This document shows positions 23,167 to 30,848 of a DNA stretch of 64,000 bases, piece after piece. A program made the position numbers and the translations under genes. How positions within the stretch are numbered: position 1 is the stretch's first letter; each line of letters starts with the position of its first letter. The stretch spans positions 1,248,001-1,312,000 of the forward strand of contig OZ219802.1 of the NCBI GenBank assembly GCA_964291655.2, given 5' to 3'. Below the pieces are notes generated by a model. That model was not told where the DNA came from, did no database searches, and worked only from the letters and a program-made list of their open reading frames with translations. The DNA is from Chloroflexota bacterium (GTDB lineage: Bacteria; Chloroflexota; UBA11872; VXOZ01).

Positions 23167-23238
23167 GCCGACGTAGCTCAATGGCAGAGCAGCGGTTTTG
23201 TAAACCGCAGGCTATGGGTTCGAATCCCTTCGTCGGCT
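23167..23238 (+). tRNA. tRNA-Thr(TGT)
   Basis: Acceptor stem GCCGACG/CGTCGGC, anticodon arm GCGGT-TTTGTAA-ACCGC and GGTTCGAATCC T-arm; no encoded CCA. Confidence 0.95.
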
Positions 23239-27406: not shown

Positions 27407-28834
27407 GTGAAGAGACCTATCGCAACACTCGTGCTGGGCCTCGGCCTGGCGCTTCTATCCGCCACTTCCATCGGCGCCAGCGTTGGTTGTCAGTTCGTAC
27501 TGGGCTTCAAGACGCTGCGGGACATCGTCGGTCACGAAACCGTGGGCGGATGCCTGGAGAACGAACACCACAACGCCAGTGGCGATGGCGTGCAGCACAC
27601 CACCGGTGGGCTCTTGGTCTGGCGCAAGCAGGACAACTGGACTGCCTTCACAGACGGCTATCGCACGTGGATCAACGGCCCCAACGGCCTGCAGCAACGG
27701 CTGAATACCGAGCGCTTCCCGTGGGAGCATGACTACGCACCCGGTGGCGGCGTCGCAACGCCGACCCCAACACCGATTCCACCTACTCCAACGCCTACTC
27801 CTACTCCTACTCCTACTCCTACCCCAAGGATAGATCCCCGCCTGGGCCGGGCATTGCAGGCGCTTCAGACAACATTTCTCGGCCGGACATACCACGCCTG
27901 GTTCACCGAGGCAGCACCCAGCATGACGTTTGGCACCGTGCCGGAAGGCTGGACGTCCCGCTACCATGACCCGCCGCGCAACGAGATCGTCATTGACACG
28001 GCTCTGCGCAGCGAGAGTGCCGACGTGCTCGCGGCCCTCATCGCCTGGGAAACGGTGCTGGCGGTCAATAGCAAGCGCCGCGGTCCACAAAGCGAGCGCT
28101 GGCGCTCCGGGGCAGACTGTCTGAACGAGGTGGTTGACGCCGAAGTAGCTCTCGCCCGCTGGTGGATTTCGCGCTTTGGCCATGAGGGCTTGAGCAATCC
28201 CAGGACAGCAACGGAGCGAATGCTCAATCTACTTGCACAGCGCTACCGCCAGGAATACCTGGAATTTTCGGTGCTATCGTCTTCGGCGTACCGTGAGTGG
28301 TGCGCGCAATACGGCACGCTGCCGCCTATTCCCACACCAGAGCAGTTCGTCGACCCCTTGCTTGAAACAGCGCTCCAGCTCATGCGGACCACAGCCTTCG
28401 GTGAGGACCTCTATGCGGCCTACCTGCAATCCAATGTCCATTACCTAGGCTTTGCCGACTTAAGCCGCGTTGATGTGCCGAACGTCTTGGGCATCTATGA
28501 CGCGAAACGCGGCCGCGTTTTCCTCGACGATACTCTCCGCGAAGCCAGTCAGTATGTGCGCGTGGCCGTGCTGGTGCATGAATTGTTCCACGCCCGGCCT
28601 GGTAACGACTATACAGACTATTCCACGGAGAAGTGCTTCGAGGAGGAAATACTCGCGTTCAGCGCGCAAGCGAAATGGTGGTACGAAAAATTCGGCGTAC
28701 GGGGCAAGCGCAATCCAACAAAGGCTGAGCGGCGCGAAAACTATATCTTAAGGGAGTGGCTGGCGGGACGTACCGATGACTTGGTGCGCCAGAGCGAAGG
28801 CTACCAGGAAGTATGTGCACGGCATGGTGACTAG
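27407..28834 (+). CDS. Secreted protein with PT-repeat linker and duplicated zincin-like domain
   Basis: Signal peptide, 'CQFVLGF...WRKQDNWTAFTDGYRTWINGP' domain, (PT)n linker and 'VHELFH' HExxH motif. Confidence 0.7.
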   Translation: MKRPIATLVLGLGLALLSATSIGASVGCQFVLGFKTLRDIVGHETVGGCLENEHHNASGDGVQHTTGGLLVWRKQDNWTAFTDGYRTWINGPNGLQQRLNTERFPWEHDYAPGGGVATPTPTPIPPTPTPTPTPTPTPTPRIDPRLGRALQALQTTFLGRTYHAWFTEAAPSMTFGTVPEGWTSRYHDPPRNEIVIDTALRSESADVLAALIAWETVLAVNSKRRGPQSERWRSGADCLNEVVDAEVALARWWISRFGHEGLSNPRTATERMLNLLAQRYRQEYLEFSVLSSSAYREWCAQYGTLPPIPTPEQFVDPLLETALQLMRTTAFGEDLYAAYLQSNVHYLGFADLSRVDVPNVLGIYDAKRGRVFLDDTLREASQYVRVAVLVHELFHARPGNDYTDYSTEKCFEEEILAFSAQAKWWYEKFGVRGKRNPTKAERRENYILREWLAGRTDDLVRQSEGYQEVCARHGD

Positions 28835-29306
28835 GCACGCGGGACTGCAACCCGTCAAGCGGCGTTCGACCGCACGATTTGCAGGAAAGGCCGTGATTGA
28901 GTCGGGGTGCAGGGGTGCCTTTCGACCAAACGATCGGTCTGCCACGAGCAGATCTTGGCCTTGCGCTCATCAAGAGACGTAAAGCCTTCAGGTAGATAAA
29001 GGGCTCGCTCGAGCCGCCGGCGTGCTCTGTTGCATTGGTAGGCAGCGCATGTAGTCGCCCCGCTGTTGCCCATGCAGGTTGGTCCGGTTGACCGCCTTTC
29101 TCTCAATCCCCCACCGGTAGATTGCGTACACGTCCGTCGGCGTGGGCAGGCGTAATGTCACGCCAAAGGGAAAAGGATACGAATCAGCAGCGTGGTGTTT
29201 GCAGCGTTATGCTCGGTTTGAGTTAGGCAGAGACAAAGGAGAGTTATGCCAAGCGCCTGGCTCTCGGCATAACCGCTGTCACCTTCACCGAGAGTGCGGC
29301 GAGGGC

Positions 29307-29335
29307 TTGAAGCAAGCTTTGCGCTGCGCTACCAT
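29307..29335 (+). promoter_or_regulatory. Sigma70-type promoter driving the structured leader
   Basis: TTGAAG-N17-TACCAT, placing the TSS at ~29341-29342. Confidence 0.55.
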
Positions 29336-29340
29336 CGAAA

Positions 29341-29520
29341 GTGGCGAGTCCCGCGCCGAACTCTCTGACCGGGTACCTGCGCTGTCCGGCTGATGCGAGA
29401 GCAAAGGGGATTGGTGTCCTCGGGAATGCATGCCGCCGGAGCTACGATCTCGGCTGTTGTTGTGACGTTTCTCACAGGGAGAAGCCAGTGCGCGCAGGGT
29501 CTTGGCTGCTCTCCTCGCGA
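29341..29520 (+). ncRNA. Candidate structured RNA (multi-stem, kissing-loop) in the 5' leader of the BtrH-like gene
   Basis: Closing stem GCGAG/CTCGC, several internal hairpins and 7-bp loop-loop complementarity CCTGCGC/GCGCAGG. Confidence 0.55.
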
Positions 29521-29534
29521 GAAAAGGTTTCAAC

Positions 29535-30848
29535 ATGACGCAACAGAAGCACTTCAAGCAACTCGTCCGCGCCCGCATGGCGAAGACCGGCGAGAGTTAC
29601 ACCACCGCTCGCCGTCACGTACTCGCAGCCCGCACAGAAAGAGAGCAATCCTTGGCTGAGTTTCCCCACTTTCCCGGTGCCCATCCTGAGACAACCGCCC
29701 TGCGGGCGGCCCTGGCTCACGCGGGCGTTACTAATCCGGAAACCGGCGAATTCTTCACGGAATCCATGGTCTTCGGCATTGCCGGCGGCATTGGCGCCGG
29801 CGTGTTTCACTTCTACTACGCTGCCGAGGATTTTGCCAGCTTTTATGTTGCCGGTCGGCACCGCTGGCATGAGAGCGATACGTATGTGAACGACGCCTGT
29901 CTGCGCTTTGGCGTGACGCCAAGTGTCCTCGAGACTGGCGCCAAGAAACGAGCCGCCGCGCAGCTGGCTGAAGCCGTAGCAGCTACAGGCTGTGCCATTG
30001 CGTGGGTGGACATGGGACTGCTGCCGTATCGGGGCGCGCCGCCCGGCCTGGAAGGCGGGGGCTACCACGTGGTAACAGTGTATGAGATCAACGAGGACGA
30101 GGCGCTGATTGGGGACCTTACCGATGAACCCATCGCGATAGCGCTTGCTGACCTCGCTGCGGCCCGCGCCCGCATTAAGAAGCAGAAGAACCGTGTGCTC
30201 ACCGTTGCCGGCCCGCAGCAGGACCTTGTGCTGCGGGAAGCGGTGCTGGCGGGCGTCAAGGCCTGTCACGACGGACTGCAGAACCAGCGCATGAAGAACT
30301 TCACTTTGGAAGCCTTCAAGACCTGGGCGGACCGCATGCACGGCAGCAGCGGCAAGGAGAGTTGGGAGCAGGTCTTTCCCCCCGGTCATCGCCTCCTGCA
30401 AGGACTGCGCTCGGTCTATGACTTCGTCGAGCACTACCATACGGGCGGCGGTCTGATGCGCCCGCTCTATGCCGCATTCTTCCAAGAGGCGGCTGAGACG
30501 CTGGAGGAAAATGCATTCCTGCCGCTCGCAGAAGTGTACGCCGACCTGGGCAGGCTGTGGGGCGAACTGGCCAATGCGGCCCTGCCGGATGACGTGGCGC
30601 CTTTCCGTGAAGCGAAGACACTGCTCGCCCGCCGGGAAGAGATCTTCCTCAGCCAAGGCCTCGCCGCAACCGAGGAGATCAAGGGCATCTGGGCCCAGCT
30701 CACCGCGCTGGAACGCGACATGGGCAAGGAATTCCCCCTCACGGATGCGGAGAGCAACCAGCTCAGAGCTGAGCTAAAGGAACGCATCCTGGTAATCTAT
30801 GAAAAAGAGCGCGCCGCCCACGAAGCGCTGGGCGCCCTGGCGAACTAG
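29535..30848 (+). CDS. BtrH N-terminal-like / DUF4872-like protein with a basic N-terminal 'RARMAKTGESY' module
   Basis: 'FGIAGGIG', 'AWVDMGLLPY', 'GYHVVTVY' and 'GGGLMRPLYAAFFQEAA'; AAGG RBS before the ATG at 29535. Confidence 0.7.
   Translation: MTQQKHFKQLVRARMAKTGESYTTARRHVLAARTEREQSLAEFPHFPGAHPETTALRAALAHAGVTNPETGEFFTESMVFGIAGGIGAGVFHFYYAAEDFASFYVAGRHRWHESDTYVNDACLRFGVTPSVLETGAKKRAAAQLAEAVAATGCAIAWVDMGLLPYRGAPPGLEGGGYHVVTVYEINEDEALIGDLTDEPIAIALADLAAARARIKKQKNRVLTVAGPQQDLVLREAVLAGVKACHDGLQNQRMKNFTLEAFKTWADRMHGSSGKESWEQVFPPGHRLLQGLRSVYDFVEHYHTGGGLMRPLYAAFFQEAAETLEENAFLPLAEVYADLGRLWGELANAALPDDVAPFREAKTLLARREEIFLSQGLAATEEIKGIWAQLTALERDMGKEFPLTDAESNQLRAELKERILVIYEKERAAHEALGALAN

Follow-up and report, generated by a model that had tools for sequence, protein, structure and literature searches.

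In a stretch of 64,000 nucleotides (nt) from a Chloroflexota bacterium (contig OZ219802.1; hereafter the window), the gene at 29535..30848 on the forward strand is preceded by a conserved non-coding 5' leader, which occupies window positions 29343-29537 with the start codon included and 29343-29534 in its untranslated part. As judged from aligned relatives, this leader is a covarying, tertiary-structured RNA that includes the ribosome-binding site (RBS). The encoded protein of 437 amino acids (aa) opens with a basic peptide of ~ 33 residues, MTQQKHFKQLVRARMAKTGESYTTARRHVLA, referred to here as the tag, which is followed by a short linker and a BtrH_N plus DUF4872 body. RNA and tag show near-perfect co-occurrence and co-loss, and the leader 29343-29534 together with the first ~ 33 codons is one inherited unit. 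The coupling of RNA and tag on unrelated proteins suggests a self-contained RNA-peptide control unit; our best reading of it, although a tentative one, is that the protein regulates its own translation, the tag recognising the leader of its own mRNA.

The coupling was examined with covariance models. Orthologues of the gene were recovered from 30 of 61 related genomes and 21 of them start with the tag peptide. A model of these 21 Chloroflexota leaders (R1) matches the 5' domain of the leader upstream of the tag in other phyla as well, and a second model, restricted to the 5' domain, was built from 63 sequences with a hand-written structure (R2). R2 matches 87 of 89 tagged loci at E <= 7e-11, each match lying on the coding strand and beginning 148-238 nt ahead of the start codon, compared to no match at E <= 1 in nine loci of untagged orthologues or paralogues. 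When the RNA alone was used as the query, five whole genomes gave one match each, at the tagged gene, and a sample of 151 actinomycete genomes from the class of Lentzea gave 17 matches in 14 genomes, every one followed by a tag (15 of 15 if two matches from genomes flagged as unpublished are left out). Furthermore, among the 61 genomes of the window's class, R2 and a tag profile hit the same 23, adjacent on one strand, and the other 38 have neither. Co-loss is seen in two genomes of the same genus (G010 and G011, 96% and 99% complete) and in a third (G050), where the BtrH-like gene is kept and RNA and tag are both absent genome-wide. These genome scans scored the best 30-150 candidates per genome, hence weak extra copies could be missed. 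Among the genomes checked there are 1 to 3 RNA-plus-tag units per genome, the RNA being found only before tagged genes, and the genome G144 carries three of them (L130, L141 and L143), two of BtrH type and one of DUF4287-SRPBCC type.

The tag itself is widely distributed. A word-indexed protein search with residues 1-45 returned 170 proteins of 240-765 aa at E <= 0.1, plus 155 shorter ones, and the tag heads BtrH-like (BtrH_N/DUF4872), DUF4287-SRPBCC (AHSA1), DUF1835, WD40, LRR and FHA proteins; a body that looks nitrilase-like by eye also carries it. When a 13-row alignment of the tag was run against genomes taken at one per species, at least 585 tag loci were confirmed, and the 80 that were kept come from Chloroflexota, Actinomycetota, Gemmatimonadota and Acidobacteriota, the actinomycete carriers including Lentzea, Micromonospora, Dactylosporangium, Streptomyces and others. 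Among 67 translated tagged genes, 41 encode BtrH_N plus DUF4872, 18 AHSA1, 16 DUF4287 and three WD40. The statement, in an earlier reading of this DNA made from the sequence alone, that the peptide recurs on otherwise unrelated proteins is thus borne out in several architectures. The tag is all that the tag-bearing proteins have in common, no one pathway or transport function being shared.

Two further ideas on the distribution were considered and set aside. Stand-alone tag proteins are not apparent, since the short matches appear to be truncated or frameshifted versions of the two main architectures, and a recently mobile cassette was judged unlikely because tags and RNAs group with the C-terminal family and the three G144 copies are divergent.

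The leader consists of two structured parts joined by a linker. The 5' domain (29343..29426; R2 84.7 bits, E = 6e-21, the only match in the 3.47-Mb genome) is predicted to be a three-way junction with the conserved strands CGCC..AC and GCAAAGG. The junction is closed by helix P1 (29349..29425), in which TCCC at 29349-52 pairs with GGGA at 29422-25, all four pairs being changed on both sides somewhere in the alignment and 94.9% of cells being paired. Helix P2 (29361..29401) joins CTCTC at 29361-65 to GAGAG at 29397-401 with five of five pairs double-changed and 98.1% of cells paired, and it covaries in an alignment made with MAFFT only as well. Helix P3 (29369..29389) is a hairpin of 29369-75 with 29383-89 whose pairs 31-37 / 45-51 covary (CG:38 UA:32 GC:7, for example) and which presents a 7-nt loop, CCTGCGC, at 29376..29382. 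Helix P4 (29406..29421), overlooked in the sequence-only reading, is a hairpin of GGGGAT at 29406-11 and GTGTCC at 29416-21 around the loop TGGT, with four of six pairs double-changed and 98.2% of cells paired. A possible extra helix at the 5' end, GGCG 29343-46 with CGCC 29354-57, would enclose the 5' strand of P1 and give an H-type pseudoknot; elsewhere it takes the form GCG..CGC with some compensating positions, and its register is ambiguous and differs between lineages.

The linker (29427..29457) varies in length and sequence and is nearly absent in genus g5. Here it forms a local hairpin that includes GCCG/CGGC, a stem of the sequence-only reading; relatives have other hairpins or none. 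Three leaders of one genus (L012, L014 and L015) contain an extra hairpin of ~ 45 nt in the linker (alignment A1 columns ~ 108-157, window ~ 29440-29455), as is typical of a variable stem that is tolerated.

The second part is a 3' hairpin (29458..29535). Its basal helix pairs 29458-73 with 29519-35 (covarying RNAalifold pairs 169-190 / 237-253) and, in the RNAalifold structure of the 21 Chloroflexota leaders, encloses the purine-rich RBS and the A of the ATG. Within it TTTCTC at 29468-73 pairs with GAGAAA at 29519-24, with a UA to CG covariation in 7 of the 21. The purine-rich RBS region, GAGAAAAGG (29519..29527), is assigned by its position and ends 7 nt upstream of the start codon. The upper part of the hairpin, P5 (29478..29514), joins GGAGA-AGCCAG at 29478-88 to CTTGGCT-TCTCC at 29502-14 and shows compensatory variants in L005 and L007 (GCAGG/CTTGC) and also in genus g5. 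Its apical loop holds GCGCAGG at 29492..29498, the complement of the P3 loop at 29376-82.

All strings quoted in the sequence-only reading are located where it had placed them, and its stems TCCCG/CGGGA, CTCTC/GAGAG and CCGGG/TCCGG correspond to P1, P2 and P3, all of which covary, while its GAGA-AGCCA/TGGCT-TCTC stem corresponds to P5 with its compensatory variants. In contrast, the pairing it had proposed between the two ends of the domain (GCGAG/CTCGC) has a 3' partner that varies without compensation, and its TGTGA/TCACA stem is unconserved and likewise uncompensated, this stretch pairing with the RBS region instead (TTTCTC/GAGAAA); both stems were rejected. Moreover, the folded domain does not end before the RBS as had been thought, for both the RBS and the start codon lie inside the basal helix.

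Some cases at odds with a strict association of RNA and tag were judged on inspection to be of another nature. A tag-less match of 33.9 bits (G044:C104) lacks P4 and the GCAAAGG strand and was taken as spurious, as were matches of 23-26 bits in G050. One apparent untagged orthologue (L026) is explained by a contig break, its tag and RNA being found at the end of another contig.

Comparative analysis argues for the structure. RNAalifold applied to a MAFFT alignment of the 21 Chloroflexota leaders gives a two-part structure of 45 predicted pairs, 8 of which are compensatory already in this close set. In a wider count, the 87 matches were aligned to R2 (84 distinct rows) and 24 pairs were scored. 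Standard pairs are found in 94.6% of cells compared to 40-54% when the 3' partner is slid by 1-3 columns, 22 of the 24 pairs show changes on both sides, and there are 357 double-change cells against 35-52 in the slid controls; none of 500 column shuffles matches the observed values. The alignment made with MAFFT only displays the same helices as the one fitted to the model.

The loop-loop pairing was examined by searching each leader, from the end of the 5' domain to the start codon, for the stretch most complementary to its 7-nt P3 loop. In 87 of 87 leaders this stretch, 30-52 nt (median 40) before the start codon, pairs with all seven loop nucleotides and uses no more than one G-U, compared to 274 of 4350 shuffled regions and 140 of 785 cases in which the loop was swapped for that of another variant. 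There are 12 loop variants in all, each with its matching downstream partner (CCTGCGC/GCGCAGG, CCTACGC/GCGTAGG, CTCACGC/GCGTGAG, CCCACGC/GCGTGGG, CCAGCAC/GTGCTGG and CCCCAGC/GCTGGGG among them). Thus the kissing-loop pairing put forward from the single sequence (CCTGCGC/GCGCAGG) finds strong support, and the leaders upstream of tagged genes, this loop-loop helix included, covary as that reading had expected. Covariation hence supports a predicted fold with kissing loops and a basal helix that sequesters the RBS. The three G144 loops are CCCACGC, CTCACGC and CCCACGC; two of them are identical, so the copies are not insulated by distinct loop codes and the idea of orthogonal kissing codes among paralogues was dropped.

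The start of the leader can be placed as well. A -35-like hexamer, TTGAAG (29308..29313), whose TTG is among the few conserved columns upstream of the leader in the 21 Chloroflexota sequences, is followed after 17 nt by a -10-like hexamer, TACCAT (29331..29336), for a predicted transcript start at ~ 29343. A promoter consensus scan gave no site, the -35-like hexamer falling below its threshold. However, conservation of the 21 leaders begins directly after the -10-like hexamer, at ~ 29343, and continues through the start codon, and it is strong even across a pair of genera that share only ~ 58% protein identity; upstream of the two hexamers the DNA of the orthologues is nearly unalignable. Furthermore, a TANNNT sequence is found 13-14 nt before the start of the R2 model in 75 of 87 loci from four phyla. 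Given this spacing, the conserved RNA starts at the predicted transcript start, and the comparison backs both the TTGAAG-N17-TACCAT promoter-like element and the coincidence of the folded RNA with the predicted transcript start that the sequence-only reading had described.

At the other end of the leader, masking of the RBS was assessed from minimum free energy (MFE) folds of the 3' domain. In 51 of 87 folds 70% or more of the segment from -16 to -4 is paired, compared to 74 of 435 shuffles; the kissing partner falls within a single hairpin in 83 of 87, and at least five of its seven nucleotides are unpaired in 63 of 87. A kissing-competent hairpin and a paired RBS occur together in 39 of 87, and this modelling suggests that the kissing-competent conformer tends to be the RBS-closed form. 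The gene's own leader thus holds a structured element overlapping the RBS, as in autogenous translational operators, and a conserved, covarying aptamer-like domain, as in metabolite riboswitches. No terminator or processing signal was seen at the leader.

The tag is an N-terminal helical-hairpin domain under selection at the protein level and absent from Pfam. Its coding sequence for residues 1-33, MTQQKHFKQLVRARMAKTGESYTTARRHVLAAR, occupies 29535..29633 on the forward strand. In the AlphaFold2 (AF2) model the tag shows a helix at residues 3-18, a turn at TGE and a second helix at 22-32, followed by a linker of lower confidence, the predicted local distance difference test score (pLDDT) being 88-91 for residues 11-30. 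In other families the linkers are Pro/Ala-rich and reach tens of residues. The residues M1 (T2) K8 R12 R14 T18 G19 E20 Y22 R26 are invariant across families. Synonymous codon positions vary freely and Ser21 is encoded by both AGY and TCN, so selection acts on the peptide, and conservation of the tag as a by-product of RNA structure was rejected on the same grounds.

The 45-aa tag region matched no Pfam family at E <= 1, and a profile search of the PDB sequences gave a single chance-level match (E = 1.6). A ribbon-helix-helix domain is not supported, as the AF2 model has no strand and Pfam gave no match, and a relationship to ribosomal protein bL34 was rejected (hhalign probability 0.9%, four aligned residues only). 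The K/R-T-G-E-S turn of the tag (residues 15-24) resembles the R-T-G-R-x turn that opens DUF4287 (P0049, P0079 and P0033), a domain which stands directly after the tag in SRPBCC-type proteins; by this sequence likeness an old duplication is possible.

In the autoregulation that we favour, the leader would fold into the three-way junction, the P3 loop would kiss the apical loop of the 3' hairpin and the basal helix would sequester the RBS and the start codon. The basic helical-hairpin tag of the newly made protein would then bind the folded leader, most likely through the shape of the kissing complex, of the invariant junction or of both. Drift of the loop sequences alongside a constant tag fits such shape recognition. 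Binding would stabilise the RBS-closed form, so that the protein would limit its own translation in a negative feedback. Furthermore, the ligand- or partner-binding C-terminal folds (SRPBCC, WD40, LRR, FHA, BtrH-like) could modulate the availability of the tag, which would make of the whole a protein-sensed translational switch. The more specific proposal of a portable RNA-peptide cassette, in which a hairpin of ~ 33 residues reads the kissing complex of its own leader and has been attached to unrelated sensor domains, we regard as rather doubtful. If it were true, such cassettes would be one-component translational regulators in which a protein domain senses and a structured RNA switches, in other words a riboswitch-like RNA whose ligand is the N-terminus of its own product.

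Several observations weigh against autoregulation by the tag. Two Micrococcaceae loci (L049 and L099) keep the invariant tag residues but lack the three-way-junction RNA, and the target of the tag may therefore be a different one. In both, the tag is on a BtrH-like protein and has substitutions at three otherwise conserved positions, and a different leader of ~ 75 nt, conserved between the two, follows a TAGAAT hexamer (L049:1240-1500 and L099:1240-1500). The tag matches no known RNA-binding family in Pfam or in the PDB profile search. Invariant junction nucleotides and a two-part architecture bridged by a pseudoknot are also typical of small-molecule aptamers. As for the RNA itself, the alignment used for the covariation count (A6) was fitted to the model and its figures are generous, and the sequences are phylogenetically related, so that the counts overstate independence. 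Finally, the RBS is less than 70% paired in 36 of 87 MFE folds and the sign of the regulation is not settled. With regard to the RNA-protein module proposed in the sequence-only reading, what stands is a novel kissing-loop RNA found obligately with a separable N-terminal tag on variable domains, but the two Micrococcaceae loci speak against strict dependence.

These same two loci, where the tag is retained without the leader RNA, favour the main rival explanation, that the leader is a riboswitch or a sensor of a trans-acting factor. The three-way junction would be the aptamer, coupled by the kissing pseudoknot to the RBS hairpin, and the tag would be a shared head with another target (DNA, the ribosome or another protein, for instance); RNA and tag would be coupled because all tag-bearing proteins need the same control. 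The invariant junction strands, the variable linker between two sub-domains, the pseudoknot and a putative expression platform overlapping the RBS are all in line with this explanation, and there is a precedent in the cyanobacterial Downstream-peptide/glutamine-II motif and the peptide that it precedes. However, the proteins so regulated have no common metabolic theme, the RNA is found only before tagged genes at 1 to 3 copies per genome checked, which is unusual for a metabolite sensor, and no Rfam family matches, the glutamine riboswitch models included. We consider a riboswitch possible but unlikely.

The leader could also, possibly after processing from the mRNA, be a stable RNA held by the tag in a ribonucleoprotein without any feedback loop, and its role there would be scaffolding, dimerisation or localisation of the variable C-terminal domain. 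Coupling at one RNA per tag and joint loss fit this equally well, and the compact tertiary fold and a sequence conservation well beyond the needs of RBS masking are in its favour. Nevertheless, the RBS and the start codon are in all cases overlapped by the 3' hairpin, a sign of translational control, and with no terminator or processing signal in view we hold a ribonucleoprotein to be improbable. An explanation without RNA function, by chance complementarity, by an element at the DNA level or by hidden coding, could draw on the fact that the single sequence 29341-29540 folds no better than its shuffles (-71.2 kcal/mol compared to -76.4 for the shuffle mean, z = +1.23; 183 of 200 shuffles fold as well or better), but folding energy is uninformative for a multi-domain RNA, the structural case rests on covariation, and we take this explanation to be refuted, with hardly any residual probability, by the covariation in all four helices and the kissing pair and by the fact that the element is conserved in four phyla with its distance to the start codon fixed. 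Moreover, leaders of 171 to 241 nt occur whose differences in length are not multiples of three. The leader is hence non-coding, which also disposes of an open reading frame of 65 aa hidden within it (29341..29538).

The body of the 437-aa protein is, on profile matches above the Pfam cut-offs and a predicted structure, a BtrH_N / DUF4872 member with a BtrH-like fold. BtrH_N (PF14399) matches at 3.1e-14 with 53.8 bits against a cut-off of 29.7 and DUF4872 (PF16169) at 4.7e-20 with 72.5 bits against a cut-off of 28, the two spanning residues 50-349. The AF2 model, made with 48 homologues as input, has a mean pLDDT of 92.6, and Foldseek relates the body to the BtrH-like amide-forming enzymes AziU3/U2, CtaG and CcbD (E 2e-8 to 6e-5) and likewise to C39 peptidase domains. 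In 48 tagged homologues none of the invariant or nearly invariant positions is a Cys or a His, and the tagged BtrH-like bodies may, as far as their sequences indicate, be non-catalytic binding domains. Near the start of the domain the window protein has PETTAL and untagged orthologues of another genus (L027-L030) have PDCTAL or PECCAL. A second BtrH-like paralogue lies outside the window (G000:C2:2084104-2085294); it is 33% identical and has neither tag nor RNA, and the other genomes of the same genus have this paralogue as well.

Upstream, the product of the gene at 27407-28834 has a signal peptide and a linker rich in Pro and Thr, and it weakly matches the metallopeptidase-like DUF6782 (E = 7.9e-5, under the cut-off). 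The spacer of ~ 470 nt between this gene and the leader (28835-29307) is unconserved and contains a terminator-like hairpin at 29080-29094. A tRNA gene at 23167-23238 (72.3 bits) is the sole Rfam match of the whole window.

Regarding novelty, a search against Rfam 15 (4227 models), a check proposed in the sequence-only reading, gave nothing in 29300-29540 even at E <= 10, and for ten diverse leaders nothing at the leader position at E <= 1; the RNA reaches the gathering score of none of these models. In the literature, the tag strings were not found and the Pfam names of the fused domains led to no RNA paper. The motif terms are absent from the main text of two Breaker-laboratory surveys, whose supplements, like that of PMC5737381, may list unnamed candidates. 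RBS masking, pseudoknot-bridged leaders and autogenous control are already known principles; an RNA inherited with an N-terminal peptide across unrelated proteins in four phyla is, as far as we checked, apparently undescribed.

The leader is therefore of interest as a widespread structured RNA class absent from Rfam, present in Chloroflexota, Actinomycetota, Gemmatimonadota and Acidobacteriota. Should the tag bind the RNA, the two would be a compact natural RNA-peptide pair of ~ 190 nt and 33 aa with a visibly tunable kissing-loop code, of use in studying how RNA is recognised by shape and, in engineering, as a portable feedback part. Should it not, the RNA would be a new class of orphan riboswitch for which an unusually sharp clue to the biology is at hand.

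Among known systems, the ZTP (pfl) riboswitches are a pseudoknot-bridged class with a variable linker, and they share with the leader two sub-domains, a linker of variable length, a covarying long-range pairing and an expression platform at the RBS, which in the leader is a putative one. Here, however, Rfam gives no match and the downstream genes share an N-terminal peptide rather than a pathway. The Downstream-peptide/glutamine-II motif is likewise an RNA consistently followed by an open reading frame with a conserved peptide, but in the present case there is no Rfam match, the peptide is the N-terminal domain of large and varied proteins, and the phyla are others. In the BglG/SacY antiterminators, an N-terminal RNA-binding domain joined to sensor domains acts on a leader RNA. 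The likeness lies in a nucleic-acid-binding head, binding being proposed here, with sensor domains and a target in the leader of their own operon, whereas fold and RNA differ and antitermination takes the place of what would be, in our case, RBS masking without an evident terminator.

Autogenous operators, such as ribosomal-protein leaders or phage lambda N with nutL in its own leader, are similar in that the RBS is overlapped or controlled by a structured element which the gene carries in its own 5' leader, and N also has a basic N-terminal RNA-binding peptide. Each of them, however, serves one protein family, compared to at least seven unrelated architectures in four phyla here. Finally, Rop/Rom of ColE1 is a small helical-hairpin protein that reads the 7-bp RNA I-RNA II kissing complex by shape. 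The tag was assigned to Rop/Rom by no sequence match (0 Pfam families, E <= 1), and the resemblance concerns the helical hairpin, here an AF2 model, and a loop-loop complex of seven base pairs between two hairpins. Shape recognition as in Rop would explain how covarying loops go together with a constant peptide. Rop is free-standing and acts in trans on an antisense RNA pair in plasmid copy number control, whereas here the hairpin is fused to the N-terminus of diverse proteins and the predicted kissing complex forms within a single molecule, the leader of the protein's own mRNA.

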